From NCBI GenBank assembly GCA_026395685.1, contig JAPLYG010000016.1, forward strand, positions 65,035 to 129,034: a stretch of DNA of 64,000 nt, read 5' to 3'. The DNA is from Candidatus Parcubacteria bacterium. GTDB taxonomy: Bacteria; Patescibacteriota; Patescibacteriia; CAIXNZ01. The translations under genes were made by a program, and so were the position numbers. Below, one piece after another: positions 10,575 to 52,717 of this stretch (position 1 is its first letter; every line of letters starts with the position of its first letter). Below the pieces are notes generated by a model. That model worked only from the letters and a program-made list of their open reading frames with translations. It did no database searches and was not told where the DNA came from.

Positions 10575-10705
10575 GTAAATAACCAATCATCAATAATCAA
10601 CATCCAAACAAATCATAAATTCTAATTTTAAATATCAAAACAATTTAGAATTTAATTATTGTATATTAGTTATTGTTTGATGATTGCGTTATTGATTATT
10701 GGATA
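10575..10705. repeat. Family-A intergenic palindromic element (copy A1)
   Basis: Reads aaccaatcatcaataatcaacatccaaacaaatcataaattctaatttt ... caatttagaatttaatt ... attgtttgatgattgcgttattgattattgg. Its left arm would encode the first 11 codons of the track ORF 9185-10603. Confidence 0.65.
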
Positions 10706-11884
10706 TTATAACTGCAATAATTTATAAATATAGTTTTTAATATCCCATTCCTTTGCTCTCATTTTAGCATTTTCCGACATTTGTGTTAACTTGCTAATAT
10801 TTTGCAGGCTAAAATTAAGCTTATTCAAAAGTCCGATTTTACTGCCAGCCTCAAAAAGATAGCCATTTACACCTTCCTGCACCAGCTCCGATATGCCACC
10901 GATCGCTGAAGCAATGACCGGGGTGCTGAAATTAAAACTGTCATATATCACGCTGGGGGAATTTTCATAGCATAAAGACGGTACAATGGCATAATGTATT
11001 TTCTTAAAAACCTGCTGGCTGAGCAAATTGGCCGGAATATAGCCTAAAAACTCTACCCATTTTTTTCCTTGATATTCAGTATTTAACCTGTCAGCAAGCT
11101 TGCCATTACCCACCACATAGAGCTTTACCTCCTTATTATTTGCAAATTCCTGAAAAACATCCAACAGCAACAAAATGCCCTTATGCTCTTCCAATTGGCC
11201 CAAAAAAAGATAATTAACGGTCGAGTCAGCAATATTTTTTTTATAATTTTCATTTTCTAAGATAACAGGGTTTGGCAAAACAACTTTGCGTATTTTTTTA
11301 AAAAATCCAGCCTGATCATAAAAGTCGAGCAACCACCTTGAAGGTGAAATTATCACTGAAGCATTATTAAATAAGTATCTGGTAATAAGGGAGTATAAAT
11401 AGCAAGATAAAGGCTGCGTTTCCTGACCTTTGATTATTAAGCCGGAAGGATTTACCAATTGCACGTCATGCAAGGTATGAAAACATCTAGTTTTTGACTT
11501 CTTAATCGCCAGCAGAGTCAAATAGCCCAATCCTTTAAGATTATGGCTCAGGACTATATCTGGATTTTCCAGCTGTATGATTTTTTTAATCTGAAAATAT
11601 GAATGCAGATTAAAAGTGTCAATCAGATGCCAGATCAGACGCTTCCACCTTGGCTGGCTGCCAATATCGACAAAGGAAAAAATATTTTTCGGATAAAAAC
11701 GATAAATTTTTATATCATCCATTTCCGTTAAAAAAAACTTTGTTTTTTCCGGCTTGGCGGAAATAGTAATGACAAAAATATCATGGCCATCCTTTTTCAA
11801 TTCCTTGACCAGATTGGAAAAAACAACCTCAGCTCCCCCGCGGCGATAAGGTTTGTACAAACTGTTTATTAGGGCAATCTTCAT
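10706..11884 (-). CDS. Glycosyltransferase family 4
   Basis: The N-terminus is MKIALINSLYKPYRRGGAEVV. The C-terminus has an E-x7-E-like block (CYENSPSVIYDSFNFSTPVIASAIGGISELV). Confidence 0.8.
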   Translation of the reverse strand: MKIALINSLYKPYRRGGAEVVFSNLVKELKKDGHDIFVITISAKPEKTKFFLTEMDDIKIYRFYPKNIFSFVDIGSQPRWKRLIWHLIDTFNLHSYFQIKKIIQLENPDIVLSHNLKGLGYLTLLAIKKSKTRCFHTLHDVQLVNPSGLIIKGQETQPLSCYLYSLITRYLFNNASVIISPSRWLLDFYDQAGFFKKIRKVVLPNPVILENENYKKNIADSTVNYLFLGQLEEHKGILLLLDVFQEFANNKEVKLYVVGNGKLADRLNTEYQGKKWVEFLGYIPANLLSQQVFKKIHYAIVPSLCYENSPSVIYDSFNFSTPVIASAIGGISELVQEGVNGYLFEAGSKIGLLNKLNFSLQNISKLTQMSENAKMRAKEWDIKNYIYKLLQL

Positions 11885-18044: not shown

Positions 18045-18330
18045 GCCTCATCGGGTATCACCGAATTTATTCGGTGATCCGTGCTCGCCCATACAACCCC
18101 GAATGAATTCAGGGTTACCCTGCGGAAGTTGTTCCAATCAAACGCGCAGTCTCGGGGTATCACCGAATTTATTCGGTGATCAGTCCGCGCCCATACAACC
18201 CCGAATGAATTCGGGGTTACCCTGTACAAATTGTTCAGGCAGAACTTTCGGATTGGGGGTATCACCGAATTTATTCGGTGATACGTCCGCGCCCATACAA
18301 CCCCGAATGAATTCGGGGTTACCCCGTGAA
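18045..18330. repeat. REP/BIME-like array of three ~100-bp units of two alternating palindromes
   Basis: Each unit has ggtatcaccgaatttattcggtgat, then gcgcccatacaa, then ccccgaatgaattcggggttaccc. It lies immediately adjacent to the RAYT-like gene. ORFs 17915-18265(-) and 18103-18381(+) are artefacts of this array. Confidence 0.8.
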
Positions 18331-18358
18331 TCCGTACGTGTCCATATAACTAAACTTA

Positions 18359-19717: not shown

Positions 19718-19904
19718 AAAAAACAAGGTTAATTGAATTAATATATCCTGTCTATATTTTACCAAAATTAACCTGTTTCAACAACTAATCCAAAACCTTT
19801 ATTCGGTCATTACCAACCCCGGGGGCTTGGGGGATGAGAACGAAGCTCTTTTGTTCGCTTCAAACTCACACGTCCACTACTTCGATTTATTCAAATTTTT
19901 CTGA

Positions 19905-19990
19905 TTAAATCGCTTTCCCTTCACCCGGGGTCTGGGGGCCGAACTAAGCGCCGTTATCAATGCTACGAACTTTCCATTTGCACTAGCGCA
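19905..19990 (+). ncRNA. Candidate structured small RNA / terminator-containing element (family C, copy 2; partial copy at 19797-19850)
   Basis: The stem ctgggggcc...ggcccccag encloses conserved gaactaagcg / tacgaac / cat.tgcactagcgcattga blocks, followed by a T-rich tract. A perfect AT-rich hairpin ggtacttttt-gctgtc-aaaaagtacc lies at 19995-20020. It is homologous to 30867-30990. Confidence 0.4.
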
Positions 19991-20199
19991 TTGAGGCCCC
20001 CAGCAGTTTTGGCGGTACTTTTTGCTGTCAAAAAGTACCAAATATTCAGGAGATACAATTATTTTGAATTATAAATATTTTTTGCTTTGCACAAATCAAT
20101 TTTACCATATAATTTATTGTTTGAAGTTATATTTTAAGTTGTATTATTAACAATTAAGTTTTTACTTCAAACTCACCTGGCTCATTACAGTGGCGTTTT

Positions 20200-20246
20200 T
20201 TCAAATAACACAAAACCTCCCCTCCCGCAAAAGCGGAAGAGGAGGC
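20200..20246 (-). terminator. Intrinsic terminator downstream of the 1198-aa gene
   Basis: On the minus strand: cctcctcttccgc-tttt-gcgggaggggagg, followed by ttttgtgttatttg. Confidence 0.6.
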
Positions 20247-20288
20247 TTGGACAGTTTTAAGCTGCTGACAAACTTTGAAGGAGTACTA

Positions 20289-23200
20289 TTATGGCTTGAT
20301 CAAAGCTCCACCATATTGAGTGCCTCGGAAGATAATTGTACCTCTTTGGTAATCAGCAGGTGTTTGTTCAATGACACGCCATTTGATATTTCCGTCAGCG
20401 CCATCAGATAATGACATTTGGACTGAATCACCAGCAGTTGTAAGATCAGCACCAGTAGCTAATGAAGTATCCATGTAAACATAAACTGTCTTGGATAGGC
20501 CTGCCGGAATATTATAACTTCCAGCAACAATGGAGCCGAAATCCAATACAACGTCATCAGTATTTGCTGCTAAAGTAGTATCGGTACCTAGAGTTATGCT
20601 TCCATCTTTAAATGTAACAAGTCCAGCAGCACCCGCACCAGCCATATCCAAATGAACGATTACGCAACCTTCATTAGCAACAGCGCAAGCGCCATTATTA
20701 TTACCCTTAGTGAATACCAAGTCATCATTAGCACCAGCAGTAATAGTAAAGCTGCCGATTAGAGTACTTGCACCTGGGACTAAGTTTCCAGAAGGAGTAG
20801 CTGAAGTAGCGACAACCGGGAAATTCTTATAAGTGTAAGCATTTTGGATAGAAGTATTGTTCAATTTGCTAATACCGGTTACGCCAGTATCAGTTAGACC
20901 AAGTAATTTCTTGTTTGAAGAAACACCCAAGACAATGAAATCATTAGTCATAATTTGTTCAGCTGCATTCCAGGTATCAGCAGTGATAAGACCTAATCTT
21001 ACAGCGGCATCATTAATAGCGCCGGCTGCATAAGAGTTAAGGTCAGCACTGATTGTCATTACAGCACTGCTATTGACCGGAACATACATATCCAATTGGC
21101 CGTCAAGAAAAGTTACTGAGCTGACAACGCCAGTTGTTGATATGTCGCCAAGCTTAGTTTCGGTAGTACCGCTGGCATTCTTATAAGAAACTTTAACCTT
21201 AGCGAGATTTATTTCATTAGCAGCTGTTTGTAGTTCGATCTTAGCGCCTTTTACTGTAAATGCTTCGTCAACAGCAGATACTTTGTATTTTGACAATACA
21301 ACATCGCTATTGCCTAAAGTTGCCAAGGAAGCTAATGGAGTGCCGCTATCAACAGCAACCACTACATTACCACTGGTCTTTATGGTCTGCATTACAGTAG
21401 GAGTTCCGGCTAGTCCGTCAAAGTTGAAATTAGTAGCTGACAAAGTAGTTAATAAACTGCCAGTGCTATTTTCAACTTCCAAATCTTCTGAAGGTTTGAT
21501 ACTAACAGCAGTATATTTAGGACCGACTATTGTATTACGATAAGCTAATCTGACTGTTAATTTCTTTTGAGCGCCTGCTGGAATAGCATAAGCTAAATTA
21601 GTGAAATCAGCTCTATAATATTCACCAACCTGCCAAACGCCATCGCCACCTCCAATTTCTATCAGAGTTAAATTGACAGGACCCTTAACTAAAGTAGAGC
21701 CATCATATAAACTAGCTGTTTCAACAAGCAATTTAGCATCTTCATTACCAGTATAAATAACACCAACTCCGCCGCCATCAGTGTCAAAATCAGCATTATC
21801 ATCACCATAAACTCTAGCCTGTAAGCGATTCAATTTTAAGGAATCAGCAATACCGGCAGAAAGGTTAATGCCTAATGCATCACCAGCTTGAGTGCCTCTG
21901 ACAAAAGCAGCTGAGGTTGGAATACCAGCCAAAGTAACTGTTAAGCCAGAAGTTGTAACTGTCTGACTAACACCAGCAACTGAAGATGGGACAATATTGG
22001 TATTTAAGACATATTCAGAAGAATCATTGTCATAAACAAAGCTTGCAGTGCTTAAATCAAAGGTAGCAGCAAGAACAGTGCTATTAGGGGTCAAAGAGTC
22101 AAAATCAGCCTTGATTGCTAAATGTCTGGTTGTGCCAGCAGTTAAATCATAGGTGTCAGATGACCTTAACCAGCAGCCTGCATTCAAGTGAGCAGCAGTT
22201 GTACAAGCCGTTGCACCGCCTTGAGTTGTCTTAAAGCCGCCTAAATCAGCAGCATAAATCAAAGTTGTACCGCTGTCCAAGTCAACTAATTTGACATTCT
22301 TAATGTATGTTTCCAAATCATCATTAGCAGCGCCGGTTGTCTGTACTTTAAGATCTGTCTTTCTGACTGTTGCATTTCTTTCAGAAGAAACATTTACTTT
22401 CAAGATAGCATTGCCGTTTGTGTTTGCTGAGAAAGTAGTAGCTGCCGGGCCTGCGTTTCCTAAAGTAATTTGACCGCCTTGCATAGTAACAGTCTGGTCA
22501 CCAGCTGCATCATATGAAGGGTCAATAATGATATTAGCACCAACGCCATATAGAGCATCCTGGATATTTAAATCAGTTCTTTGGTCAACATAGAATTGAA
22601 CAGTATCGTTGGTTCTGCCGCCTGTAATATCAGCAAAAACAGAGAAATTCTTAACCTGGCCTTTGGCAACTGTAAATGGAGCGCCCAAGACAAAAATTGC
22701 CTTATCGCTAGACATTGCAGCAACTGAAGCCAATTCATAAGAACCCTGCTTTAATTTCAAGTTGGCAATATTGGTGTTTGTCAATTTGCCGCCTTGTCTT
22801 AAAGTAATAGCATAAACAGTTGCATCATTAAGACCAGCGGTAATAGAGAATTTAGCTAATTCTGCACCAGCTGTTCCCAAAGTAACATTCCAGTTAGCTG
22901 AGGTACCTCTGATAGTAACATCAGAAGCTGCAGCATTACCAATAGTCATCAAATTGCCCATTACACCGGCAACAGCATTGCCGTTGATTGACTGAATAGA
23001 CAAAGCATTTTGATCGGTTGCTCTAGCAGCATTATCAGTGACATCAACTTTTGCAGTCAAAGTGACAGAGCCACTGATTGCTAAATTGATGTTGGTGAAA
23101 GTAACTGTATTGGTATCAGAAGAAATGCTTCTGCCAGATGTTAATCTGGTATTGCCATTGTATAGGTAAACAGAGACATAGTCGCTTGCGTTACCTAAAC

Positions 23201-23885
23201 CAGTTCTCTTTAAGATAACTTCATTTAAAGTTCCGCTACCAGAAAGAGTGAATTTCAAGACTGGAACGCCAGTAGCTTTTTGAGCCAAGGTTGCAGCTGC
23301 TGGATTATCAGATGCCAATGAAGCATTGAAAGCAGCCTGGTTGCCGCCGGATAAGCCTTTATCAACATTGATAGAGACAGCGGTAGAAGTAGCAGTTGCA
23401 GGTACAAAATCAGCACATGCATTGATCGGAGCGCCGATTGTGTAATTTACAAAAAATGCGTCTGAAATATCATCAACCTTTGTTCCCCAAGTTGCGCCAT
23501 ATAAGCATTCAGCAATGGCAGCTGTGGTTACCCACCTTAATGTGCCGTTAGCTGCAATAGCGTAGACTTTAGGATCAGTGGTAATTTTACCTAATTTTAC
23601 GCCCGGTCTCATGGTTACATTACCGCCAATTGGAATAGCAGCCAGTTCAGCGTCGGTAATTGTTTTAACAGTTGAAAAATCAGGATACCAGGTCTTGTAT
23701 GTTTTCTCATTTGGGAAAACATATCTTTTTCCGTCAGCTGCGTAGTAATAAACAGCAGCGCCGGAAGCCTTGATCAAGTCGCCAGAAGTAACTGCTGCTT
23801 GAGCGACTGGAACAAATGCTGCTAAGCCGACAGCCCAAAAAATTGTAAGGACTACGACACTAACAGTAAAAATCCTTTTAATCAT
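20289..23885 (-). CDS. Giant secreted surface protein (1198 aa): signal peptide, the unnamed ~110-aa domain, then long Thr/Ser/Gly/Asn-rich beta-rich repeat region
   Basis: The signal peptide is MIKRIFTVSVVVLTIFWAVGLAAFVPVAQA. Then comes ASGAAVYYYAADGKRYVFPNEKTYKTWYPDF...TDPKVYAIAANGTLRWV. The remainder is low-complexity and Ig/beta-sandwich-like. Confidence 0.6.
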   Translation of the reverse strand: MIKRIFTVSVVVLTIFWAVGLAAFVPVAQAAVTSGDLIKASGAAVYYYAADGKRYVFPNEKTYKTWYPDFSTVKTITDAELAAIPIGGNVTMRPGVKLGKITTDPKVYAIAANGTLRWVTTAAIAECLYGATWGTKVDDISDAFFVNYTIGAPINACADFVPATATSTAVSINVDKGLSGGNQAAFNASLASDNPAAATLAQKATGVPVLKFTLSGSGTLNEVILKRTGLGNASDYVSVYLYNGNTRLTSGRSISSDTNTVTFTNINLAISGSVTLTAKVDVTDNAARATDQNALSIQSINGNAVAGVMGNLMTIGNAAASDVTIRGTSANWNVTLGTAGAELAKFSITAGLNDATVYAITLRQGGKLTNTNIANLKLKQGSYELASVAAMSSDKAIFVLGAPFTVAKGQVKNFSVFADITGGRTNDTVQFYVDQRTDLNIQDALYGVGANIIIDPSYDAAGDQTVTMQGGQITLGNAGPAATTFSANTNGNAILKVNVSSERNATVRKTDLKVQTTGAANDDLETYIKNVKLVDLDSGTTLIYAADLGGFKTTQGGATACTTAAHLNAGCWLRSSDTYDLTAGTTRHLAIKADFDSLTPNSTVLAATFDLSTASFVYDNDSSEYVLNTNIVPSSVAGVSQTVTTSGLTVTLAGIPTSAAFVRGTQAGDALGINLSAGIADSLKLNRLQARVYGDDNADFDTDGGGVGVIYTGNEDAKLLVETASLYDGSTLVKGPVNLTLIEIGGGDGVWQVGEYYRADFTNLAYAIPAGAQKKLTVRLAYRNTIVGPKYTAVSIKPSEDLEVENSTGSLLTTLSATNFNFDGLAGTPTVMQTIKTSGNVVVAVDSGTPLASLATLGNSDVVLSKYKVSAVDEAFTVKGAKIELQTAANEINLAKVKVSYKNASGTTETKLGDISTTGVVSSVTFLDGQLDMYVPVNSSAVMTISADLNSYAAGAINDAAVRLGLITADTWNAAEQIMTNDFIVLGVSSNKKLLGLTDTGVTGISKLNNTSIQNAYTYKNFPVVATSATPSGNLVPGASTLIGSFTITAGANDDLVFTKGNNNGACAVANEGCVIVHLDMAGAGAAGLVTFKDGSITLGTDTTLAANTDDVVLDFGSIVAGSYNIPAGLSKTVYVYMDTSLATGADLTTAGDSVQMSLSDGADGNIKWRVIEQTPADYQRGTIIFRGTQYGGALIKP

Positions 23886-24372
23886 ATTAATTTTATCCTT
23901 TCTTAACTCCTGAACAAATTTACGGATAAGAATATAAATTTTACCAAGCCCGAAGGCTCGACGGGGAAAATCCCCTGCCCATAAACTTTCAAAAGCCGAC
24001 CGGATAAATCCGACGTCGACCTTTACTTTTGAATGTTTAGGAACTTATATCCTTATTTAACCCGCGAAATCCATTCAAGAGGGTTAGTTAGCTACCCGAA
24101 ACCCGGATTTAATATCCAGGAGGGTAATTCCTATATACCCCCAAGGCATTTAGGAATCTGCACCAAAGGTGCAAACCCTGACTTTTCACTAAACTTAGTC
24201 AAAAGGCAAGGCCTGAACCGCACAAATAAATTTTAAATATCAAATTTTAAATTTAAATTGTAGGTGGATTGTGTTTAATTTTAAATTTTTAATTTTAAAT
24301 TTTAATTTTTGGAGTTTGTATTTTAATTTACAATAAATCATTTTCCAATATTTAAAACTTATAATTTAAAAT

Positions 24373-24756
24373 TTATAATTTTTCAAGATTCTTTTTATTC
24401 TCAATGGTAATTACGATTTTTGAAAATATCAGGATCAATTCATGAATTTCCTGCATTAATGGCTTGCCTTCAGTCTCTAACCCAGAGTTTGCCATAATAA
24501 CCAATCTTAACCAATATTTCGTTTCTTTTGCTTCTTTTTTACAGATACAAATTTTATTTTTAAAATCTTTCTCAGAACTTGCGCCATTTGCTTCATGATA
24601 ATTCGCTCCCACTTGTTCCTGACCTTACTATTTGTCTAATTATGGGTAAATTTACAGCGGTTTTGGGAATTTTTTTAGCAAATTTTATAATATTTTCGGC
24701 AAATACAATTGTTCTTTCTTCCAAATCAAATTTAAATTCTTTTTCCGACATTTATA
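24373..24756 (-). pseudogene. Four-helix-bundle protein gene (23S rRNA IVS / Avd-like family) disrupted by a frameshift
   Basis: The upstream minus-strand reading frame runs MSEKEFKFDLEERTIVFAENIIKFAKKIPKTAVNLPIIRQIVRSGTSGSELS and stops at about 24601. The family continues in another frame as GANYHEANGASSEKDFKNKICICKKEAKETKYWLRLVIMANSGLETE (ORF 24373-24612). The two halves together match the E-G-x-G-R-x-S-x-K-E-F...E-x-x-Y-W-L pattern of IVS-family proteins. Confidence 0.5.
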
Positions 24757-24836
24757 ATTTAAAATTTATAATTTAAAATTTTCAACTCATTATATTTACT
24801 TGCTATTTGGGATTTGTCTTTTGGTACTTCAATCAA

Positions 24837-26168
24837 TTATTTCTTTTCGGGAACAGTATTTACATTTGCCGGTTCTGGAATAGTTGCAGGCGCAGGTGTT
24901 TCAGCCGCTTGTGGCTTTGGCGCTTCCAGATATTCTTTATTTGCCTCAATAACGTCTTCAGCTAATTCAATGATATCATTGGCATCTTTTAATTTGGAGT
25001 ATGACCATAAAACTTCTTTAGTTATCAAATAGCCCTTGGATTCAAGTAATAATTTCTGAGCATCTGCTAATTTCACCTTAATTTCAGCTGGTGATGGTAA
25101 AACCACTTCAGGCGCCTTTACTTCAATTGGCGTTACATCAGTAGGCGGATTTAAATTAATATTTTCGATAGTTTCAACTAATGCTTCAACAGGTGTTTCT
25201 GCTGGCTTAACTTCGGTTGTAGCAGCAGGGGTTTCAGTCCCTGTCTCAATCGCAGTTGCCGCAGCTGCAGCGGCTGCTTTTTCTGCTTCAGCCTTGGCTT
25301 TGGCTTCTTCCGCTGCCTTAGCTTTAGCCAAATCATCAGCTATTTTTTTATTGACAATAATCTTATCTAAATCTTCATTATCTCTTCCTAAGCGATAATT
25401 TAAATCAGCCATTTTCTTTTCCAGACTTTGAATCACGGTATCCAGGGTCACTTCCTTACTGCCTGCCTTATATTCATTAATAATCATATCCAAAGCTTTT
25501 TCTGCCATGGCCTTAGAGGAGGTAATCGCTTCAAGAGTAGCTTCGGTCTTTTTCAAATCAGGATTTTTATCTTTTTGTTGGGTTAAAATCTCAACATAAT
25601 TTTTAGTCTTTTCATCCACTAATTTGGCAACTTTGACAGCGACATTACTGTCTGTTTTTTCCAGTTTAGCCAGACTGGTTTTCATATTATTGATGCTTTC
25701 CTGAAATTTCTGCAAAGAAACCTGGACATTTTCCTTTTGCTTGTCATCATTGACCGGCTGATCAGTGATTTTCTGCAGTTCCTCAAGCCTGCGTTCAGCA
25801 AAGGCTATTTCTAAATTAGCCTTTTTTTCATCATTATTGGCCAGATTGATTTTCATTCTTTCAGAAGTGATTTTAATAGGATACAAAAAATCGCCGGGCA
25901 AACTATTTTTTGTTGCGCCGACGGTCATAACATAACTGCCTAAAACTATGCCAAAAACTAATATAAAACCAGCTACCGGCTTATATAAAGAAACTGTTAA
26001 TCGTTTAAAAAACAAGGAGGACCAATTGATTTTATTCTGAACAGTGTCACTGGTCTGCGCCTTGATTTGAGACAGCAAAATATCCCGATTGAGCTGTTTC
26101 CAGGCTGCATCAGGTTTAACTTCATTTTTCAGATTATTCAATTGTTTTAAGAAGTCACGCTTGCGCAT
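24837..26168 (-). CDS. Putative anti-sigma factor (single-TM, DUF5667-like periplasmic coiled-coil region; Ala/Glu/Lys/Pro-rich C-terminus)
   Basis: It lies immediately downstream of the ECF sigma gene and is co-oriented with it. It has a cytoplasmic N-terminus, one TM helix (LYKPVAGFILVFGIVLGSYVMTV) and then LANNDEKKANLEIAFAERRLEELQ repeats. Confidence 0.5.
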   Translation of the reverse strand: MRKRDFLKQLNNLKNEVKPDAAWKQLNRDILLSQIKAQTSDTVQNKINWSSLFFKRLTVSLYKPVAGFILVFGIVLGSYVMTVGATKNSLPGDFLYPIKITSERMKINLANNDEKKANLEIAFAERRLEELQKITDQPVNDDKQKENVQVSLQKFQESINNMKTSLAKLEKTDSNVAVKVAKLVDEKTKNYVEILTQQKDKNPDLKKTEATLEAITSSKAMAEKALDMIINEYKAGSKEVTLDTVIQSLEKKMADLNYRLGRDNEDLDKIIVNKKIADDLAKAKAAEEAKAKAEAEKAAAAAAATAIETGTETPAATTEVKPAETPVEALVETIENINLNPPTDVTPIEVKAPEVVLPSPAEIKVKLADAQKLLLESKGYLITKEVLWSYSKLKDANDIIELAEDVIEANKEYLEAPKPQAAETPAPATIPEPANVNTVPEKK

Positions 26169-26326
26169 GTATTTAATTGAGTTTAAAGTTGAAAGTCAAA
26201 AGTTATAAAGTTGGGAGTTGATTATATTTTGGAATATTTTAACCACAGATTAAATTCACAGATAGCACTGAATTTCGAATTCATCACTCATCTATATAAT
26301 CTGCATCTGCAAGAAAAAATCAGTGT

Positions 26327-26893
26327 TTATTTTTCGCCCATTAGCTCCCGCAAGGCATTTGTTGCCCGATAAAGAATGACTCTGACAGCTCCATTTTTCT
26401 TTTCCACTATCTCAGCGATCTCTCCAATTGATAATCCGTCAACATATCGTAAAATAATAATTTCCCGATAATCATCTTTTAAACCCTGGAGCTTATCCTG
26501 TATTTTTTCCAGCTGAATCTTACTATCAAGTTCATCCTGGCCTTGAGTAATCATTATATTATCAACCCGCAGATTTTCTCCCCCGCTGTCCAGAGCATCC
26601 AAAGAAACTCCTTTATGCGCTGCTTTACGATAATAATCAATTACCAAGTTACGGGCTACTTTATATAAGTAAGCATTTAGGTTGGAAATCTCTTTGCCGC
26701 TGATAATATATTCCCAGGTCTTCAAAAACACCTCCGAGGTTAAATCTTGGGCTTCTTCCTTACTATTTATCTTAAAAAAAACAAAGCGATAAATCTTATC
26801 CACATAGAGGTCGTAAATCTTACTGTAGGCCTCGGGATCTTTATTTCTCGCTTTAAATAGTAAATATTTTTCTGTAATTATATTAGCTGTCAT
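26327..26893 (-). CDS. RNA polymerase sigma-70 factor, ECF subfamily
   Basis: Region 2 reads EAQDLTSEVFLKTWEYI...YLYKVARNLVIDYYR. Region 4 has the HTH LSIGEIAEIVEKKNGAVRVILYRATNALRE. Confidence 0.85.
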   Translation of the reverse strand: MTANIITEKYLLFKARNKDPEAYSKIYDLYVDKIYRFVFFKINSKEEAQDLTSEVFLKTWEYIISGKEISNLNAYLYKVARNLVIDYYRKAAHKGVSLDALDSGGENLRVDNIMITQGQDELDSKIQLEKIQDKLQGLKDDYREIIILRYVDGLSIGEIAEIVEKKNGAVRVILYRATNALRELMGEK

Positions 26894-26895
26894 TT

Positions 26896-26928
26896 TATAA
26901 GACGTGTGAATTAAAAAAATGTTACAAC
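26896..26928 (-). promoter_or_regulatory. Candidate ECF-type autoregulatory promoter (AAC-N16-CGTCT) just upstream of the sigma gene
   Basis: Minus-strand sequence reads tgtaaca-tttttttaattcaca-cgtcttataaa-ATG. The GTAACA / CGTCT spacing is as in ECF sigma promoters. The -10 is only about 6 nt from the ATG, suggesting a leaderless transcript. Confidence 0.35.
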
Positions 26929-27214
26929 CATTATAACATCTTTTAACGTGTTTTTATTATAACATGGAAACAAATATTGTTCAATGGCTTTTACTCCTTG
27001 CCAATAGCCAAATTTTGGGACAAATTGTGCATATCCTGTAACCTTGCTTTATTGAGTAAAAACCCTAAAAATAAAGGATTATGTTCTAATAATAGACACC
27101 TGCTAAGAAATAAGCTTTTCCAGCAAATCCTAGCTTTTGCTGTAATATTTTGGAGATAACGAATACCTCTTGTCAACCTTATCACTTTCTTGCTATATTA
27201 CCATTGAACCTTAA

Positions 27215-27369
27215 TTTTGTCCACACTAATCTAGACAAAGTAAATAGGCTGAGGGTTAAGGTAATGATGCTGGTAAGTGAATTAGGCAAAGTGAATAGTA
27301 AAAATTACCAATTACCTAACCCTTACATTTACCAGCATCCTAACACTAACACCATTCACCAACTTATAT
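27215..27369. repeat. Family-B intergenic imperfect palindrome (copy B1)
   Basis: The left arm is gagggttaaggtaatgatgctggtaagtgaattaggcaaagtgaatag. The right arm is ccaattacctaacccttacatttaccagcatcctaacactaacaccattcacc. It abuts the ATG of the 27370 gene. Confidence 0.6.
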
Positions 27370-27663
27370 ATGCCTGATATCAATCAAATAAGAGTCTCAA
27401 TCTCAGAAGCTGCACGACTTTTTGGCGTAGATGCCAAAACAATCCGCCGGGCAATCAAGACCCAGGAGATCCGCTATGTGGTTGTGCGTGGCCGCTATAA
27501 GCTTAACTTTGAAAGCCTGATCAAGTGGTCACAGCGCAAAACAACCGTACGCAATAAAAGCAATAATCAGGGCATTGGCCAGTATGTTGGCCAGTGGAAG
27601 ATCAGTAATAAGCTTTACTCACCCAATCCGCCTAAGGATACTGAATTAGAAAATAAAAAATAA
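27370..27663 (+). CDS. Small helix-turn-helix DNA-binding protein (excisionase/MerR-like HTH_17-type)
   Basis: 97 aa. The opening VSISEAARLFGVDAKTIRRAIKTQEIRYVVVRGRYK is a classic Xis-like winged HTH. Confidence 0.5.
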   Translation: MPDINQIRVSISEAARLFGVDAKTIRRAIKTQEIRYVVVRGRYKLNFESLIKWSQRKTTVRNKSNNQGIGQYVGQWKISNKLYSPNPPKDTELENKK

Positions 27664-27800
27664 TTGAAATAAATAATCAATACTCAATCATCAAACAATA
27701 TCAAATATCTAATAACAAAATTCTAAACTTGTTTGGTAATTTGATATTATAGTTTAGTAATTGTTTGATTATCCCGAAGGGATCCCTTTGGGATTGATGA
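27664..27800. repeat. Family-A intergenic palindromic element (copy A2)
   Basis: The left part is aaataatcaatactcaatcatcaaacaatatcaaat...ctaaac, the centre is gtttagtaatt, and the right part is attgtttgattatc...gattgatgattgatgtttgatgatt. Confidence 0.6.
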
Positions 27801-27821
27801 TTGATGTTTGATGATTAAAAA

Positions 27822-27862
27822 ATAACAAAACCCCGCGTCCTTTCGGAACACGGGGTCTTGTT
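27822..27862. terminator. Intrinsic terminator between convergent genes
   Basis: Hairpin aaaaccccgcgtcctttcggaacacggggtcttgttttg. Confidence 0.5.
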
Positions 27863-27876
27863 TTGTATCTAATTAG

Positions 27877-29046
27877 TTATGCACTTTTAATTTCCATCTG
27901 GGTAACAGTTTTCTGATTCTTAGAGCTTAAAACTGAATTATAGGCATCAATTGTCTTTTTAACAATGTTCTCCCAATTATATTCAATTTCAGATCGATAC
28001 TGTAATTTTTCACCCATTTCCTGAACAACTTCAGGATGGTTCAATAAATACTGCAATTTCTGGCTTAAATCCGTAATGCTTTTACTGATAAAAGTTAAGC
28101 CGATTTCAGAAACCGCTTCCCTGTTAGGCGCGATATCACTGACTAATACTCCTTTGCCATAGCTCATTGCTTCCAATAAAGCGATTGATAAGCCTTCAGC
28201 TTCTGAAGGCTGCACAAATAAATAGGCATTAGAATATAATTCAGCTAAAGCTGTACCGGTTTGGTTGCCGGTAAAAATGATATTAGGATTGTCACCAGCC
28301 AAAGATTTCAAATACTGCACATAATCTTCAGTAAAATTGGCATCGCCAACAATTACTAATTTTTTGTCAGTATTTTTCAAGATGGAATAAGCTCTGATTA
28401 AATAATGCAAGCCTTTATGGCGAATCAGCCTGGAAACGGCCAAAATATAGTCATTACCGACTAATCCCCATTTAGCAGTGATTATTTGAGGTTTAATAGC
28501 AGCTGGTTGGTTTACACCATTAGGAATATAATCCAATTCGCCATTGAATTCCTGGCTATGAACCTGGGACTGATATTGAGAAACAGCAATGCACTTATCA
28601 GACCATTTAACAGAAATGTAAGCGCCTAAGCCTAAAAATTTTCTAGCCCAAACACCCCACTTTTTATGTTTCCTGTCGTCAGAGTGAAAAGTAGAAATGA
28701 CTTTGGCAGATCTTTTAAATAATTTAGGAATCCATAACAAACTGGAAGGTCCGATTGCATGATAATGAATAATATCAGCATCACGTCTTAAGACATCCAA
28801 GCTGGCTAACAAAGTATGAGAGATTGCATCCAAATGCTTAGTTTTAATGCTGGGCAAATGGATTAATTTTACGCCCTTATATTCAGTTAAACCTTTAGGA
28901 GTAAAATAATTTCTGCAATACACAAAAACTTCGTGACCTTCTTTCACTAATCTGGTAGCTAATTCCTCAACGTGGCGTTCAACGCCACCGGAAATAGCCG
29001 GTATTCCTTTTTGTCCGATAAAATAAATCTTCATATTTTTATACAA
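27877..29046 (-). CDS. Glycosyltransferase family 4
   Basis: Shows MKIYFIGQKGIPAISGGVERHVEELATRL and EAEGLSIALLEAMSYGKGVLVSDI. Confidence 0.8.
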   Translation of the reverse strand: MYKNMKIYFIGQKGIPAISGGVERHVEELATRLVKEGHEVFVYCRNYFTPKGLTEYKGVKLIHLPSIKTKHLDAISHTLLASLDVLRRDADIIHYHAIGPSSLLWIPKLFKRSAKVISTFHSDDRKHKKWGVWARKFLGLGAYISVKWSDKCIAVSQYQSQVHSQEFNGELDYIPNGVNQPAAIKPQIITAKWGLVGNDYILAVSRLIRHKGLHYLIRAYSILKNTDKKLVIVGDANFTEDYVQYLKSLAGDNPNIIFTGNQTGTALAELYSNAYLFVQPSEAEGLSIALLEAMSYGKGVLVSDIAPNREAVSEIGLTFISKSITDLSQKLQYLLNHPEVVQEMGEKLQYRSEIEYNWENIVKKTIDAYNSVLSSKNQKTVTQMEIKSA

Positions 29047-29289
29047 TATTAGATGAATTAATCCCCAAAGTACTAGGAAATTAAGACATTGGGGATTTAA
29101 TATTTAATATTGTATATTAGCATAAATTTGCTTCTTTGTCAACTATTTATTCTTAATTTAAGTAGCAAATGGCTAATTTTAGCCTTTTAAATCAATAAAT
29201 AAGGCAAAAATCACCTCTTGGGATTAATTACCTTACTATAATCTTTCTCCTATTGTCAAGTTTATTTTTTATTATATTTTGGGCTATAT

Positions 29290-29540
29290 AGGCGCGGACT
29301 AATCACCGAATGAATTCGGTAATACCCGAACAATCACCTGCGGGGTAACCCCGAATTTATTCGGGGTTGTATGGGCGCGGACTGATCACCGAATGAATTC
29401 GGTGATACCCGGAGACTGCGCGTTTGCATGGAACAACTTCCGTGGGGTAACCCCGAATTTATTCGGGGTTGTATGGGCAAGGACGAATCACCGAATGAAT
29501 TCGGTGATACCCCAAAAATTCCCGCGGGGTTACCCCGAAA
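29290..29540. repeat. Second REP/BIME-like array, about 2.5 units, in inverted orientation relative to 18045-18330
   Basis: Alternating (a/g)atcaccgaatgaattcggt(g/a)ata and ggggtaaccccgaatttattcggggttgtatgggcgcggac. It is the reverse complement of the unit architecture at 18045-18330. Confidence 0.8.
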
Positions 29541-29603
29541 AAAAGCGTTTTAATTGTTAATATTTTATTTTGAAAACATTTACAAATAGCGTATAATTAA
29601 ACC

Positions 29604-30755
29604 ATGAAAACTTTACAAAAAATCTGCCTGGCCATTGTAAAAATAAAAATTTCCATTTGCTGGCAAATTGGGTGTTTTTTTATTAAACCCAAGGCTGCTG
29701 ATTTACAAAAATTATCAGCTGACGGTCAGTTTAAAAATATTCTGGTTTGCGAATTGAATTTTATCGGCGATGCTTTATTGATCACCCCCTGCCTGCGGCA
29801 GATCAAACAAAATTATCCGCAAAGTAAAATTACTGTTCTAACCGGATTAAAAGCCAGCCAACAACTTTTAACCAATAATCCCAACATTGACCATCTGCTA
29901 ACAGCAAAAAATCATTGGCAGATTTTTATCTTCAGCCTTAAGAATAGAAACAAATTTGATATTTTGCTTGATTTTAGCGCCAACTTTTATAAGGCCTTTT
30001 TGCTTACTTTATCCAATATCCCCTATCGCATCGGAACCAAACCAAAACAAAAAATCCTCCTTAAAAATCGCGACGGCTTTGGCTGGCTTTATACCCATAC
30101 AAAAAACTTTAGCAGCCAGACACACATTGCTGATTATTTTCTAAGCTTGCTTGAATTTTTAGGCAACAATATTCTGGATAATCATCTGGAGATTTATCTG
30201 GATGATAAAGAAAAAAAAGACAGCTTTAAGCTGCTGACAAAATATAATCTAAACGAGAATCAGTTTTTAGTCTTGCATCCCGGGGTAAATGACCAGGGCA
30301 AAGCCTGGAATATTAAAGCCTGGCAGGAACTGGCGCAAAAATTAGTCAGCCAATATAAACTTGTGTTTACCGGCTCAACCGAAGACCAAGATTTGATTGC
30401 TGAAATTTGTCAAGATTTAAAACCCGGACAAGCTCTTAATCTGGCGGGAAAATTAGAAATCAGGCAAACAGCCACCCTGATTTTCCGAGCGCAGGCTTTT
30501 ATTGGCGTTGATACAGGGCCATTACATATTGCAGTCAGCTTTAATAAACCGATTGTTGCTATTTTTAATACCACTCACCCGCAAAACTATTTGCCCAGCC
30601 GCAATAATATTGAAATTCTGAATACCCCGGAAAAATGCAAACAGCATTTTACTTTAAATTACATCAAAACCAAAAGACAGTATAAACAAAATGAATGTTC
30701 TCAAATAATCAAGCCGCAGCAAGTACTTGAGGCTTTGGAAAAGCTGGAAAAATAA
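29604..30755 (+). CDS. Glycosyltransferase family 9 (heptosyltransferase-like)
   Basis: Shows ILVCELNFIGDALLITPCLRQIKQNYPQSKITVL and GVDTGPLHIAVSFNKPIVAIF, which are characteristic GT9 blocks. Confidence 0.75.
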   Translation: MKTLQKICLAIVKIKISICWQIGCFFIKPKAADLQKLSADGQFKNILVCELNFIGDALLITPCLRQIKQNYPQSKITVLTGLKASQQLLTNNPNIDHLLTAKNHWQIFIFSLKNRNKFDILLDFSANFYKAFLLTLSNIPYRIGTKPKQKILLKNRDGFGWLYTHTKNFSSQTHIADYFLSLLEFLGNNILDNHLEIYLDDKEKKDSFKLLTKYNLNENQFLVLHPGVNDQGKAWNIKAWQELAQKLVSQYKLVFTGSTEDQDLIAEICQDLKPGQALNLAGKLEIRQTATLIFRAQAFIGVDTGPLHIAVSFNKPIVAIFNTTHPQNYLPSRNNIEILNTPEKCKQHFTLNYIKTKRQYKQNECSQIIKPQQVLEALEKLEK

Positions 30756-30866
30756 ATGATCTCTTATAATAGGATACCTACGGCAAAATAGCTGGCGGTA
30801 TTTATGTTACAGGCTACGACCGCGATAGCGGTTAATTAAAACTAACGAACCTAAACGTTTTTATCC

Positions 30867-30965
30867 CTCCCTGGGGGCTTGGGGGTGCGAACTAAGCGTC
30901 AAGTTCAAAGTTACGAACAAACCATCTGCACTAGCGCATTGAGCACCCCCAAAACTTTTTTGATT
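30867..30965 (+). ncRNA. Candidate structured small RNA / terminator-containing element (family C, copy 3)
   Basis: The stem cttgggggtgc...gcacccccaa encloses gaactaagcg / tacgaac / catctgcactagcgcattga. It is followed by aaaactttttttg and the AT hairpin ttactttttt-agttat-aaaaaagtaa (30966-30992). The stem changes are compensatory relative to copy 2. Confidence 0.4.
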
Positions 30966-30989
30966 ACTTTTTTAGTTATAAAAAAGTAA

Positions 30990-31040
30990 GATGCCGACCT
31001 ACGTCGGCCGAAGCCGACTTCGGTCGGCGCAGGCCGGAGG
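30990..31040. terminator. Pair of GC-rich hairpins between convergent genes
   Basis: The hairpins are gccgacctacgtcggc and gccgacttcggtcggc. They are strikingly GC-rich against the AT-rich background. Confidence 0.4.
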
Positions 31041-31229
31041 CAGAATTTATTAGATTTTCGTCTAAAGCTACTTTTTTTTCCTAAACTTTTTTATATATTT
31101 AATGTATTATAACTTGCTGATCCACAAGCTTCATTCTAAACACACACGCCTGCTACGCAGGAGAATTTTCAAGTAAAAACAAAGGCAACACAATCTTGTG
31201 CCGCCTATATTGTTATTTCATGTATCTTT

Positions 31230-32450
31230 TTATTTAAGTAATTGTTTATATATTTTAATAATCTCAGCAAGATGCTTTTGCGGATCGCAGTTTGTTTCCA
31301 CCCAACGGCGGCAATTTTCGCCAATTACTTTAAGTTCAGCATCATTATTATAAAGACTTTTAATTTTATCGGCTAAATCATAATCATCCCCGGGAACAAA
31401 AACCAATCCGGTTTTATTGTCTTTAACCAGCTCGGGAATGCCTCCCAAATCAGAACCGATCACCGGCTTACCAAGAGCAAAAGCCTCTAATATCGCCAGC
31501 GGATTATTTTCATACCAAAGCGAAGGGGCAATTACAATTTTTGACTGGCTGATCAAATCCATTAATTCCTGCCCTGATTTATAACCAATCATTTTTATAT
31601 TTTCCAGATTATGGTCTTTAAGATACTGCCTAATTTCAGCCTCAATCGGCCCAGTGCCTATAATGGTCAATTTTATCTCCGGCAAGCTTTTACAGGCCTC
31701 TAAAAGCGTAAAAATGCCCTTTTCCGGGCTCAAACGCCCGATATAGCATATTCCCTCCCCCAATTTATTCTGGGGCTTAAATCGCGTCAAATCAAAGGAA
31801 TAATAAAGCTGCTTTATTTTTTGTTCTGGCAAATGCCAGTCTTTGATTTTTTGGGCTAAAAATTTGCTGGGAGCAATAAATATCTTGACCTGGTTATAAC
31901 TTTTTAAAATTATTTTGTGTCCGTACATTTCCAGCATTGCCAAAAAGCTTAAACTGCCTGAATTTTTTAAACACCTGTATTTCCAGCAATTATAATATTT
32001 ATGGACCTTGCATCGTTCACAAACTTCGCCCTGAGTAAAAAGCTGATAATTAGGACAAATCGCCTTATAATCATGCAGTGTCCAGACAACCGGAATTTTA
32101 TGCTTTTTTAAAACTCCTAAAATTGAGGGGGTGAGCTGAAAATTAAAATTATGCAGATGAGCAATGTCAGGCTTTTCTTCCCTGATTAATTTGCCCAGTT
32201 TCTTTTTGGCTTCACAAGAATAAAGCAAATGCAGAGCTTTTTTCAGATCCTTAAACCAGCCTTCGCGTTTATCAAAATTTATATTTTTTATAAAATACCG
32301 GCTGTATTTGGAATTCCTGTTTTTTTCATCCTGCATGGAAAATTCAATAACTTCATGTCCAGCTTTTTTCAATAACTCGGACAAGGCAAAAAAATAGGTT
32401 TCGCTTCCGCCCTTGGGATAAAAAAATTTATTAATCTGGAGAATCTTCAT
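31230..32450 (-). CDS. Glycosyltransferase family 4
   Basis: Shows MKILQINKFFYPKGGSETYFFALSELLKKAGHEV and YENNPLAILEAFALGKPVIGSDLGGIPELV. Confidence 0.8.
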   Translation of the reverse strand: MKILQINKFFYPKGGSETYFFALSELLKKAGHEVIEFSMQDEKNRNSKYSRYFIKNINFDKREGWFKDLKKALHLLYSCEAKKKLGKLIREEKPDIAHLHNFNFQLTPSILGVLKKHKIPVVWTLHDYKAICPNYQLFTQGEVCERCKVHKYYNCWKYRCLKNSGSLSFLAMLEMYGHKIILKSYNQVKIFIAPSKFLAQKIKDWHLPEQKIKQLYYSFDLTRFKPQNKLGEGICYIGRLSPEKGIFTLLEACKSLPEIKLTIIGTGPIEAEIRQYLKDHNLENIKMIGYKSGQELMDLISQSKIVIAPSLWYENNPLAILEAFALGKPVIGSDLGGIPELVKDNKTGLVFVPGDDYDLADKIKSLYNNDAELKVIGENCRRWVETNCDPQKHLAEIIKIYKQLLK

Positions 32451-33234: not shown

Positions 33235-34599
33235 TTAGCTCAAATATCTGACTTTATATAATTTTAAAGTAGCCAAGGCCAAGCCAACCGGCAGCCAGGT
33301 TTTTACAATATAATAGCTGGTGCCGAATAATTGAAAAATAAAAACTCCGATAACAGCCAGAAAAAATCCCAAGATGACCCAGGAATATTCGGCCTTGGCA
33401 TTTTGCTGGTAAGCTTTATAAATAATATAAATAAAGTAAAAGATCAAAAAGCAAAAGCAGGCAGTGCCTACAAAACCAGTTTCTGCCAAATTTTTAAAAA
33501 TAAAACCGTGAGAATCCAAGGCTGAGCCGTATTCAATGATATACCATTTAACCTGGGACATTATTTGGGTAAAGATACCAACACCGCTGCCAAATAAAGG
33601 ATATTTTCTAAAGAGCATAAACGACACTTCAATCAGTTTTAAACGATTTAAAGTCGCGCTTTCCGTAATACCGGCCTGCGTTAATTTATACATTAAAAAT
33701 ATGGCCGGGATCAATACAATTGCTAAAAGATATAAAGCAGCCGGACTTAATATTTTCTTCATCTGCTGGCGATATTTGAGCCAGACCAAAATCGCCAGTT
33801 GCACACCCAATGCTATCCAACCGGAACGAGATAAAGTCAGTAAATTTATGCCTGCCATCAGTATTGCGCCGCTCAGATAAATATTTTTCCAAAATATATT
33901 TTTCTCCTGCCAGAATAAAATCAAAGCCATGGGAATCAGGAAAATAAACACTTCTGATAAAAGATTATGATTTTGCCCCAGAGGATAAACGCCTAAAATC
34001 GAAATCGGCAAAACGCGCCTGGCGCCGACTACGGGCGGGAAAAGAAGCGACCAGACACCGGTAAATGCCAGGGTGACCCCCAAAACAAATAAAATCTGCA
34101 AAACATTTTTCAGCTTTTTCAAAGTATCAACCAGATTAAAAGGCAAAACAACAAACATCAGATAGAAAAAAATTATCGGCCGCAATAAATATTTCAGACA
34201 AAAACTAAAATATTCATGTTCAACATTCAATAAAGACAAAAAGCAGGCAATCACATAAAGTGCCATAAAAAACAGACCCGGAAACATTTTCAGGGTGAGA
34301 GGCTCTCTTTTCTCCATAAATGACTGGCGAATCATCCAGGCGATAAAAAGCATTAAGGCAACAAGGTCAACATAGGGTACATTTAAATCACCATAGACAA
34401 ATTCTAAATAGGTAAAAGGAAACAATAAGGCAATCAGATAAATCCCGACCTGCGGGTAGCGTACCAATAAAGTAACCGCTAAGATAAGGGCGATAAAAAC
34501 CAAAATATAATATAAAGGCAAATCAGCCTGAGAAAACCCCATGCTAATAAATCCTGACAGCAACAATAAGCCAATTAGTATTTTTTTTATTCCAGACAT
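33235..34599 (-). CDS. O-antigen ligase/polymerase-like (Wzy_C family) polytopic membrane protein
   Basis: 454 aa with more than 10 TM helices. A large loop contains LTLSRSGWIALGVQLAIL, typical of O-antigen-ligase family proteins. Confidence 0.6.
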   Translation of the reverse strand: MSGIKKILIGLLLLSGFISMGFSQADLPLYYILVFIALILAVTLLVRYPQVGIYLIALLFPFTYLEFVYGDLNVPYVDLVALMLFIAWMIRQSFMEKREPLTLKMFPGLFFMALYVIACFLSLLNVEHEYFSFCLKYLLRPIIFFYLMFVVLPFNLVDTLKKLKNVLQILFVLGVTLAFTGVWSLLFPPVVGARRVLPISILGVYPLGQNHNLLSEVFIFLIPMALILFWQEKNIFWKNIYLSGAILMAGINLLTLSRSGWIALGVQLAILVWLKYRQQMKKILSPAALYLLAIVLIPAIFLMYKLTQAGITESATLNRLKLIEVSFMLFRKYPLFGSGVGIFTQIMSQVKWYIIEYGSALDSHGFIFKNLAETGFVGTACFCFLIFYFIYIIYKAYQQNAKAEYSWVILGFFLAVIGVFIFQLFGTSYYIVKTWLPVGLALATLKLYKVRYLS

Positions 34600-41121: not shown

Positions 41122-41580
41122 ATGCCCTCCCTAGCTATCAATAAAAAAGCCCGATTTGACTACGAAATACTGGAAACTCATGAAGCCGGTATTGTTTTGA
41201 GCGGACAAGAAGTCAAATCAGCTAAAGCCGGCCAAATAAGTTTAAACGGCGCTTATGTTGTAGTTGATAATAACCGCAATCTAAATTTACTGAATGCCTC
41301 TATAACGCCGTACAAAATGGCAGGCCCCTTGCCCAGCTATGATCCTGGCCGTACCCGCCGGCTGCTTTTGCACAAGAATGAAATCGATCATTTAGCAGGA
41401 AAAATCCAGCAGCAAGGGTTGACGCTGATACCCCTTTCATTGTATACTAAGCATAACAAAATTAAGGTTGAAATCGGACTTGGCCGGGGTAAAAAAAAGT
41501 ATGATAAGCGCGAAACGATCCGCAAAAGAGAAGATGACCGCCAAATCAGCCGTCTTTTGAAAATGAAAAATCACCAATAA
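41122..41580 (+). CDS. smpB: SsrA-binding protein SmpB
   Basis: Opens KKARFDYEILETHEAGIVLSGQEVKSAKAGQISLNGAYV and has the basic C-terminal tail typical of SmpB. Confidence 0.9.
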   Translation: MPSLAINKKARFDYEILETHEAGIVLSGQEVKSAKAGQISLNGAYVVVDNNRNLNLLNASITPYKMAGPLPSYDPGRTRRLLLHKNEIDHLAGKIQQQGLTLIPLSLYTKHNKIKVEIGLGRGKKKYDKRETIRKREDDRQISRLLKMKNHQ

Positions 41581-41700
41581 CACAATCATCAATCATCAAG
41601 CAAATTCTAAACCCAAATGACTAAATAACTAATTTGGTAATTAGAATTTCGGTAATTAAGTATTGTTTGGATATTGTTTATTGATTATTGGTTATTAAAC
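41581..41700. repeat. Family-A intergenic palindromic element (copy A3) between smpB and ssrA
   Basis: Reads cacaatcatcaatcatcaagcaaattctaaac ... tttggtaattag ... attgtttggatattgtttattgattattggttatta. Confidence 0.6.
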
Positions 41701-42086: not shown

Positions 42087-42206
42087 TAAATTTTTACTTC
42101 GTAAAAATTTGGGTACTTAGTAGTTTGTACTTTGTATTTTGGGAAGAAGTAAAAATTTATCCTACACTACAAAATACACATACTCACACAAAAATAAAAA
42201 ATATGT

Positions 42207-51682: not shown

Positions 51683-51795
51683 CCCAGGACTCCCCTTGCC
51701 AAGGTAATAAAATATTGCTATAATATTCTCACAAGGTCTAAAAACCTTATTTTTAATTTATAAATATTCCTAAGTTTTAACTTTTGAATTAATTT

Positions 51796-52580: not shown

Positions 52581-52717
52581 AATGTTGAAATATTCAATAA
52601 TAAAATAAGTCCACTCTGCTCCAACAAAAAGACAATCATTATCGGGTGTTTTCTTGTCTACAACAATTTAAAAAACCCCATTGATGTTATATCTCCGGGG
52701 TTGGTTGTGTCGGGGGA

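Follow-up and report, generated by a model that had tools for sequence, protein, structure and literature searches.

The 64,000-nt stretch analysed here (the window; contig JAPLYG010000016.1 of the Candidatus Parcubacteria assembly GCA_026395685.1, positions 65,035 to 129,034 of the forward strand) carries two full copies of an intergenic element of ~115 nt, which is most likely a structured non-coding RNA, is not in Rfam 15, and was not found described in literature searches. Both copies lie on the + strand (cores at 19927-20039 and 30873-30989, below copies 1 and 2) and belong to two subtypes, A and B, respectively, which co-occur in the window and in the metagenome-assembled genome (MAG) JAPLYF01 from Lac Pavin sediment. 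It is confined to one group within the Patescibacteria, whose MAGs carry the labels Parcubacteria, Uhrbacteria, and Falkowbacteria. The interpretation preferred here, with moderate confidence, is a family of free-standing genes for a structured small non-coding RNA, the invariant interior of which would bind a partner.

Fold and nucleotide-level constraint

From 5' to 3', the element consists of a clamp helix of 9-10 bp that encloses a 54-nt interior, a U-tract, and an A/U-rich terminal hairpin of 11 bp (H3). According to RNAalifold and explicit pair counts on 39 distinct sequences, changes on both sides occur in 5 of the 9 clamp pairs (e.g., G-C/U-A/C-G, with C-G/G-C at the next position) and in 4 of the 11 pairs of H3. 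Taken together, pairing holds in 97.6% of cells, and double changes are seen in 11 pairs. The alignment has a covariation score of 0.243 versus 0.074 for shuffled alignments (0/500 reach it), and the score falls to 0.01-0.05 when the partners are slid by 1-3 columns. Compensatory changes thus exceed both shuffle and slide controls, which is what a generic test for conserved structured RNA asks for. The original prediction, made from the letters of the window, had proposed compensatory substitutions and selection on RNA structure, and both proposals hold for the clamp and for the terminal hairpin across the 39 distinct copies from several genomes.

The 3-4 nt following the clamp are complementary to the loop of H3 in 39/39 complete tails (0/2000 loop permutations), with the pair classes CAG/CUG, CAA/UUG, AAC/GUU, GAC/GUC, and AAA/UUU. 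Mutual information singles out the same columns, and the ortholog pairs L013/L034 and L035/L002 differ here by exactly compensatory G>A plus C>U changes. Since the post-clamp bases covary with the H3 loop, both lie on one molecule and form an H-type pseudoknot, which is a new finding. The same covariation makes it improbable that the RNA ends at the T-run after the clamp, as had been suggested earlier.

The first U-tract is as long as the U:A tract within H3, with 24 copies at 5/5/5 and 10 at 6/6/6 across both subtypes, and four 5/6/6 copies correspond to a flipped closing pair. This coupling fits a U-rich strand running along an A-U helix, as in telomerase-type pseudoknots, with base triples predicted only. 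Pseudoknots of the triplex type, in which a U-rich strand lies in the groove of an A-U helix, are known from telomerase RNA and from the SAM-II and preQ1-II riboswitches. They have the same strand order as the element (5' strand of stem 1, U-run, 5' strand of stem 2 ending in a U-run, 3' strand of stem 1, A-run, and 3' strand of stem 2), and in both the length of the U-run tracks that of the A-run. The element, however, would have a third loop of only 0-2 nt unless the top of H3 opens, and shares neither sequence nor covariance-model similarity with those families.

As for the interior, ~30 of its 54 bases are invariant, and the blocks remain so even at would-be synonymous sites. Between the window and locus L014 the element is 88% identical versus 75-77% for the flanking syntenic coding DNA. 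The alignment shows both the fold and the constraint on single nucleotides. Two possible interior helices, GCGY:GCGC and UCAA:UUGA, cross each other and vary only on one side (U-G and G-U), and remain candidates that are unproven. In type B the clamp is extended by GUUU:AAAC, directly followed by U5-6. Insertions of small GC-rich palindromes (L022, L023, L027, and L028) are confined to the 5' arm of the clamp, the linker after the U-tract, and the H3 loop, and spare the interior in all cases. Palindromes of this kind, which are perfect and 20-31 nt long (CCCGAAGGGATCCCTTTGGG, CCTGCCTGCCGGCAGGCAGG, and the like), sit as insertions within other repeats at 27774-27793 in the window and in these four loci; the copy of the element in L022 holds up to three of them.

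In the window, both copies have the clamp, shared blocks, and terminal hairpin with which they had been described, and all their arms are 100% complementary. The clamp domain of copy 1 (19927-20003) starts with G-run 1 (19927-19930), followed by the 5' arm CTGGGGGCC (19932-19940), which pairs with GGCCCCCAG (19995-20003). Between them are the invariant block GAACTAAGCGC (19941-19951), TCAA (19957-19960), TACGAAC (19964-19970), and the second invariant block TGCACTAGCGCATTGAG (19979-19995), the last base of which begins the 3' arm. In its tail (20004-20039), CAG at 20004-20006 pairs with the loop CTG at 20025-20027, the U-tract occupies 20007-20010, and H3 spans 20014-20039 with arms GGTACTTTTTG (20014-20024) and CAAAAAGTACC (20029-20039). 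The copy is as real as originally proposed, but the end given for it, 20020, falls in the middle of the terminal hairpin, the true end being 20039.

Copy 2 repeats this layout. Its clamp domain (30873-30952) contains G-run 1 (30873-30877), the arms TTGGGGGTGC (30879-30888) and GCACCCCCAA (30943-30952), and the blocks GAACTAAGCGT (30889-30899), TACGAAC (30912-30918), and TGCACTAGCGCATTGAG (30927-30943). In the tail (30953-30989), AAC at 30953-30955 pairs with the loop GTT at 30975-30977, and the U-tract (30956-30961) precedes H3 (30964-30989; arms TTACTTTTTTA at 30964-30974 and TAAAAAAGTAA at 30979-30989). Over 86 nt the copies share 73% identity, their clamps enclose 54 nt each, and GAACTAAGCG and TACGAAC are equally spaced in both. 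The 17-mer TGCACTAGCGCATTGAG occurs exactly twice in the window, once in each copy, with a chance expectation of 0.12.

A third, partial copy had also been reported just upstream of copy 1. It proves significant as a 5' fragment of a type-B-like copy at approximately 19780-19850 on the + strand. The fragment has counterparts of the box upstream of copy 2 and of both its G-runs, includes CCCCGGGGGCTTGGGGG, and ends with GAGAACGAAGC, a degenerate version of the first block. Its local alignment with 30840-30900 scores 61 versus 23 +/- 4.4 for dinucleotide shuffles (0/500). Beyond 19850, however, similarity is not significant (95/500 shuffles), and the covariance model described below does not detect the fragment.

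Family members and their surroundings

Exact-pattern scans of one genome per species yielded 11 loci, 10 of which belong to MAGs labelled Parcubacteria, Uhrbacteria, or Falkowbacteria. The remaining one, L001 (CAYNWH010000002.1), is the most divergent copy and comes from a MAG labelled Gammaproteobacteria; the assignment is by label only and may reflect mis-binning or horizontal transfer. Scans of metagenomes, with lakes and groundwater among the sources, added 36 further loci. Together with the window, the 47 loci give 48 distinct copies with one architecture. Copies are sparse, with 2 in the 64-kb window, 5 in one 413-kb contig, and ~2-5 per 60-450 kb in general. In one Uhrbacteria MAG the element stands at four contig ends, two identical copies having broken the assembly.

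The covariance model trained on 35 copies matches copy 1 at 19906-20055 (157.1 bits) and copy 2 at 30852-31006 (127.5 bits), with no third match in the window. Building a model from the copies and scanning related DNA had been proposed along with the original prediction, and the further copies do carry the same architecture; in 318 kb of related loci the model finds pattern-carrying copies only and no diverged ones. Rfam, the other resource named there, offers no matching family in release 15: at the gathering threshold the window and the 11 loci contain only tmRNA and tRNA matches, and at E<=10 the two element regions receive scattered matches of 12-18 bits with no consistent overlap, none of them to known classes of self-cleaving ribozymes. 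Viral contigs contain no match to the element.

Copy 1 is 90-92% identical to the copies at L004, L034, L042, L019, and L009, and copy 2 is 88-90% identical to those at L026, L014, and L006. Since identity within the genome is 73% versus 88-92% between genomes, and the subtypes co-occur, A and B are old paralogs rather than products of a recent burst.

Most copies are preceded either by a conserved AT-rich box (TTTAATTTTATYGC...GCACC) or by the C-rich leader of type B, with -10-like hexamers. In the window, an AT-rich box and pyrimidine-rich leader at 19880-19926 (+ strand) form the putative promoter region of copy 1, which includes the -10-like TGATTAAAT at 19902-19910; this box aligns with the conserved one of other copies. 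Copy 2 has an AT-rich box with the C-rich leader TTTTTATCCCTCCCT at 30840-30872 on the + strand. A two-hairpin module with the consensus ACCGCAGGCAAAATAGCCAGCGGTATTTATCTTGCGGGCTACGCCCGC precedes ~14 copies and is present in degenerate form at 30786-30835 (+ strand), upstream of copy 2.

Downstream, type-A copies have a GC-rich + strand terminator ~170 nt after H3 with a conserved box in between (consensus AATCGCTCTTTACnTATCAATTCCCAC), while type-B copies are followed by short GC hairpins. The box of copy 1 lies at 20086-20113 on the + strand and has the form of a sigma-70-like promoter (TTTGCA-16-TATAAT). According to the alignment, an imperfect hairpin followed by TTTTTT at 20174-20201 (+ strand) is the counterpart of the terminator closing type-A units elsewhere; it is not called by a strict terminator scan, and the scans report no + strand terminator at either window element. 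The RNA was first estimated at about 90-100 nt; the subtype of copy 1 stays conserved for ~170 nt further, up to a classical + strand terminator. Behind copy 2, the GC hairpins GCCGACCTACGTCGGC and GCCGACTTCGGTCGGC (30993-31028, + strand) recur after the type-B copy in L005, and the region 30783-31040 is 80% identical to that locus. A short distance past the type-A unit that contains copy 1, a strong - strand terminator at 20213-20248, a 16-pair hairpin AAGCCTCCTCTTCCGC...GCGGGAGGGGAGGTTT with a T-rich tail, ends the gene for a 1198-aa protein.

Neighbouring genes show no recurring family: of 134 flanking open reading frames (ORFs), 83 are singletons, and such clusters as there are stem from orthologous loci. 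In particular, no transposase-, recombinase-, or Rep-like gene recurs beside the copies. Among 34 loci with both neighbours within 600 nt, the orientations of the upstream and downstream genes relative to the element are (-,-) in 15, (+,-) in 10, and (+,+) in 9, with no divergent case. In 25/34 loci the element and its downstream gene are on opposite strands, and the downstream genes form no consistent co-directional class, on which grounds a riboswitch or another cis-regulatory leader was rejected.

A Shine-Dalgarno-like sequence is found at only 3/34 ORF starts in the window (starts including 29604, 33235-34599, and 6995), and at many starts the ATG follows a TATAAT- or TAAAAT-like box by 6-8 nt (e.g., gcgTATAATtaaaccATG at 29604), which suggests that window mRNAs may be mostly leaderless. 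An anti-Shine-Dalgarno role of the C-rich leader is unlikely because so few genes have the cognate sequence, and such a seed was dropped. Likewise, no complementary targets of the invariant block were found in the window.

Interpretation and its rivals

Beyond the fold, we infer transcription, its strand, the RNA ends, and the partner as follows. The + strand would be transcribed from the AT-rich upstream box of the element itself, and the clamp and pseudoknot would serve as a scaffold and as a module that forms or protects the 3' end. The invariant interior would be the working surface for a conserved partner, most likely a protein, and the several copies per genome would be old A/B paralogs on relocatable promoter-RNA-terminator units. 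As the interior does not differ between paralogs, a surface that binds one partner is likelier than a set of guides or seeds, and for the same reason a protein is the most likely partner.

Given that the element is an RNA, the + strand is likely the transcribed one. The U-tracts follow the clamp on this strand, strand-specific GC terminators close the type-A unit, the order in Uhrbacteria is terminator of the upstream gene, AT box, and element, and the candidate inner helices show one-sided U-G changes in 10 and 4 cells, respectively. The plus-strand small RNA of the original prediction is therefore kept as the best reading, in the sense of a non-coding + strand RNA, but base pairing alone leaves the strand unsettled.

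Several observations weigh against the RNA gene. The consensus of the reverse strand folds nearly as well (-33.7 vs -35.6 kcal/mol), and it offers an interior helix of its own with 8 pairs, including G-U pairs, and a pseudoknot of a sterically more usual kind. Weak maxima of TANNNT hexamers lie 8-9, 15-16, and 30 nt before G-run 1 and single out no start, and a simple promoter scan finds nothing upstream of either window copy. The complete avoidance of divergent intergenic regions (0/34), the differences in presence and position at syntenic loci, and the truncated tandem copy directly upstream of copy 1 fit a repeat as well as a gene. Finally, the search patterns had in part dictated the 5' and 3' invariant blocks. 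A search with the covariance model, however, turned up no copies without these blocks, so that the family is sharply bounded and their invariance is more than a consequence of the pattern used.

Among known systems, orphan structured RNA motifs obtained by comparative genomics (224 candidates; Weinberg et al. 2017, PMC5737381) are likewise intergenic and have covarying helices around conserved loop nucleotides. As for those motifs, the lack of a consistent gene association makes a trans-acting small RNA the default reading. The element differs from them in being limited to few Parcubacteria-group lineages, having several paralogs per genome, and being absent from Rfam 15. The closest in overall architecture are Y RNA and YrlA, which are also 80-130 nt long (Chen et al. 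2014, PMC4201824) and share with the element a large loop closed by a long stem of the 5' and 3' ends, a U-tract after that stem, and the occurrence as several paralogs; the UNCRAAC stretch of the element adds a superficial T-loop likeness. Bacterial Y RNAs are, however, encoded within 4 kb of rsr (PMC4201824), whereas copies of the element are scattered and helices for D and T arms are unsupported. With no Rfam match to this class at E<=10 and no TROVE/Ro60 protein among 18 window proteins, direct neighbours included, it was rejected. Likenesses to 5S rRNA, K-turn, UAA/GAN motif, T-box, pistol ribozyme, and H/ACA RNA, noticed by eye in short motifs, are leads at most, none of them backed by a model match or by the definition of the motif.

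The main rival to the RNA gene, unlikely on balance, is an intergenic repeat of the ERIC/BOX/Correia kind that would be co-transcribed with adjacent genes and either act in cis on mRNA stability and termination or be selfish. It would relocate through recombination or some mobilising function, its stems being kept for spread or RNase processing. The unit does change place. Loci L002 and L035 have flanking genes that are 80-87% identical, and carry the element in opposite orientation at one shared intergenic site, with inversion of the entire unit, its + strand terminators included. In the region syntenic to window positions 27395-32436, the element occupies a different place in each of the window, L022, and L014, and an AT-rich palindromic repeat unrelated to it takes the place of the L022 copy in the window. 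The truncated copy next to copy 1, the absence between divergent genes with a usual position adjoining the 3' end of a gene, and the presence of other intergenic repeat families in the same genomes, some of them common to several MAGs, point in the same direction. So do the internal insertions at fixed sites, a feature that ERIC sequences tolerate as well.

The resemblance to ERIC, BOX, and Correia elements thus extends to a length of ~100-150 nt, intergenic location in either orientation, variable presence at orthologous loci, and conservation across species. In contrast, the element is non-palindromic overall and lacks the spanning palindrome and the tens to hundreds of copies of ERIC and BOX, with only ~2-5 copies in the contigs and loci surveyed. 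Divergence is greater among the paralogs of one genome than among orthologs of different genomes, hence no recent burst, and a simple hairpin repeat would need neither a pseudoknot nor ~30 unpaired bases that never vary. The units lack flanking terminal inverted repeats, and inspection by eye of the L002/L035 and window/L022 boundaries shows no target duplication, which led to the rejection of a miniature inverted-repeat transposable element; the lack of a recurring transposase-like neighbour also speaks against the intergenic-repeat reading.

An RNA from the reverse strand, which is quite improbable, would begin with the hairpin, continue with an A-rich linker in its minor groove and the pseudoknot, and end with the clamp and an interior helix GCUAG:UUAGU. 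Besides the fold energy and extra helix given above, this strand would have pseudoknot loops of a more conventional length (apparently 1 nt and 7 nt), and the box downstream of type-A copies reads TTGAnn-16-TATTnA on the - strand in several copies. This promoter-like box is, however, poorly conserved and absent in type B, and the extra interior helix is invariant and so carries no evidence. Moreover, no U-tract follows any - strand helix, the strong terminators downstream of type A are specific to the + strand, and a - strand RNA in Uhrbacteria would enter the upstream gene in antisense without a terminator.

A terminator or insulator module, in which the clamp and U-tract stop + strand transcription and the AT hairpin is a second or bidirectional stop, is very unlikely. 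As in rho-independent terminators, a G+C-rich helix is followed by a U-tract, immediately so in type B, where the GUUU:AAAC extension directly precedes U5-6. The upstream gene is co-directional in 19/34 loci, 10 of them convergent, and copy 2 lies 112 nt downstream of the GT9 gene. On the other hand, the element is antisense to both flanking genes in 15/34 loci and has nothing to terminate there, a separate terminator of the classical type already stands ahead of many copies, and copies per genome are few. A 54-nt loop with invariant bases is superfluous for termination, and H3 is A/U-rich and has no U-tract after it. The elaborate terminator module considered in the original prediction finds no backing in the scans, according to which neither stem meets the canonical definition of an intrinsic terminator. 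Nor is the element a local curiosity or simply a duplicated terminator fragment, as it forms a discrete family across Parcubacteria-group genomes with ~30 invariant unpaired bases.

Even less probable is a single-stranded DNA structure recognised by a recombinase or HUH enzyme, such as attC, an IS200/IS605 end, or a single-strand origin. The stems do covary, single-stranded DNA tolerates G-T pairs, position and orientation differ between genomes, and the interior TAGCGC may resemble the CS-6 motif of ssoA origins. No recombinase, transposase, or Rep gene recurs beside the copies, however, viral matches are absent, the flanks show neither cleavage-site-like sequences nor target duplications, and a conserved interior with a variable stem is the reverse of the attC pattern.

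Finally, a small protein, either from a leaderless + strand ORF MGSGGRTKRRYQ...AVFVVLFAVKKYQ (~45 aa, type I toxin-like) or as a Cys-rich - strand peptide (KNCWGPQCASANG), is effectively refuted: the + strand frame is open in 29/37 copies, and ~11 copies have an ATG 7-8 nt after a TATTAT-like box, the leaderless layout apparent in window genes, but this openness (0.78) does not exceed column-wise resampling (0.82), entropy by codon position is flat (0.40/0.42/0.49, with no third-position excess), most copies lack the ATG, the Uhrbacteria lineage has an in-frame TAA, and insert lengths are not multiples of three, while the - strand frame has no conserved start, variable stops, and shifts in 6/6/6 variants. 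ORFs across the element behave as chance ORFs on either strand.

Other window features and biological meaning

The window contains several further repeats. An AT-rich, internally palindromic repeat of ~125 nt is found at 10578-10707, 27650-27830, 41569-41696, 53555-53664, 60024-60144, and 63945-63992, with copies that are 73-77% identical in the Uhrbacteria MAG loci L008, L016, and L017. One of its copies lies directly upstream of the tmRNA gene (41704-42087; 131.6 bits with the Rfam tmRNA model), for which ARAGORN gives the tag peptide AATIWTFNA. Two tandem arrays in opposite orientation (18052-18338 and 29259-29512) have a period of 102 nt and the hairpins GGGTATCACCGAATTTATTCGGTGATCC and AACCCCGAATGAATTCGGGGTT. 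A 124-nt repeat at 51863-51986 starts inside the 3' end of tRNA-Asp (51795-51871) and recurs downstream at 52013-52136 and 52488-52611 with 100% and 78% identity, respectively; it may be a trace of integration at this tRNA. Within the gene for a 1569-aa protein with a bacterial Ig-like Big_5 domain, ~300 nt are duplicated in tandem at 49473-50105 (91% identical, 333-nt spacing).

Regulatory and structural RNAs of Patescibacteria are almost unstudied, even as these bacteria, with their small genomes, account for a large share of bacterial diversity. There is a slim chance that the invariant interior of ~30 nt and the U/A-tract pseudoknot mark the element as a new functional RNA class of candidate-phyla bacteria (a protein scaffold, ribozyme, or ligand-binding fold) on a relocatable cassette, in which case it would be kept as several paralogs in otherwise streamlined genomes. 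If the family is a repeat instead of a gene, it still documents the movement of intergenic modules in Patescibacteria genomes. Being multi-copy, more conserved than the adjacent protein genes, and equipped with a well-supported pseudoknotted fold, it provides a testable entry point, and the model and alignment can be used for a census of Patescibacteria, for a search for co-occurring proteins, and for the design of probing, pull-down, and cleavage experiments.

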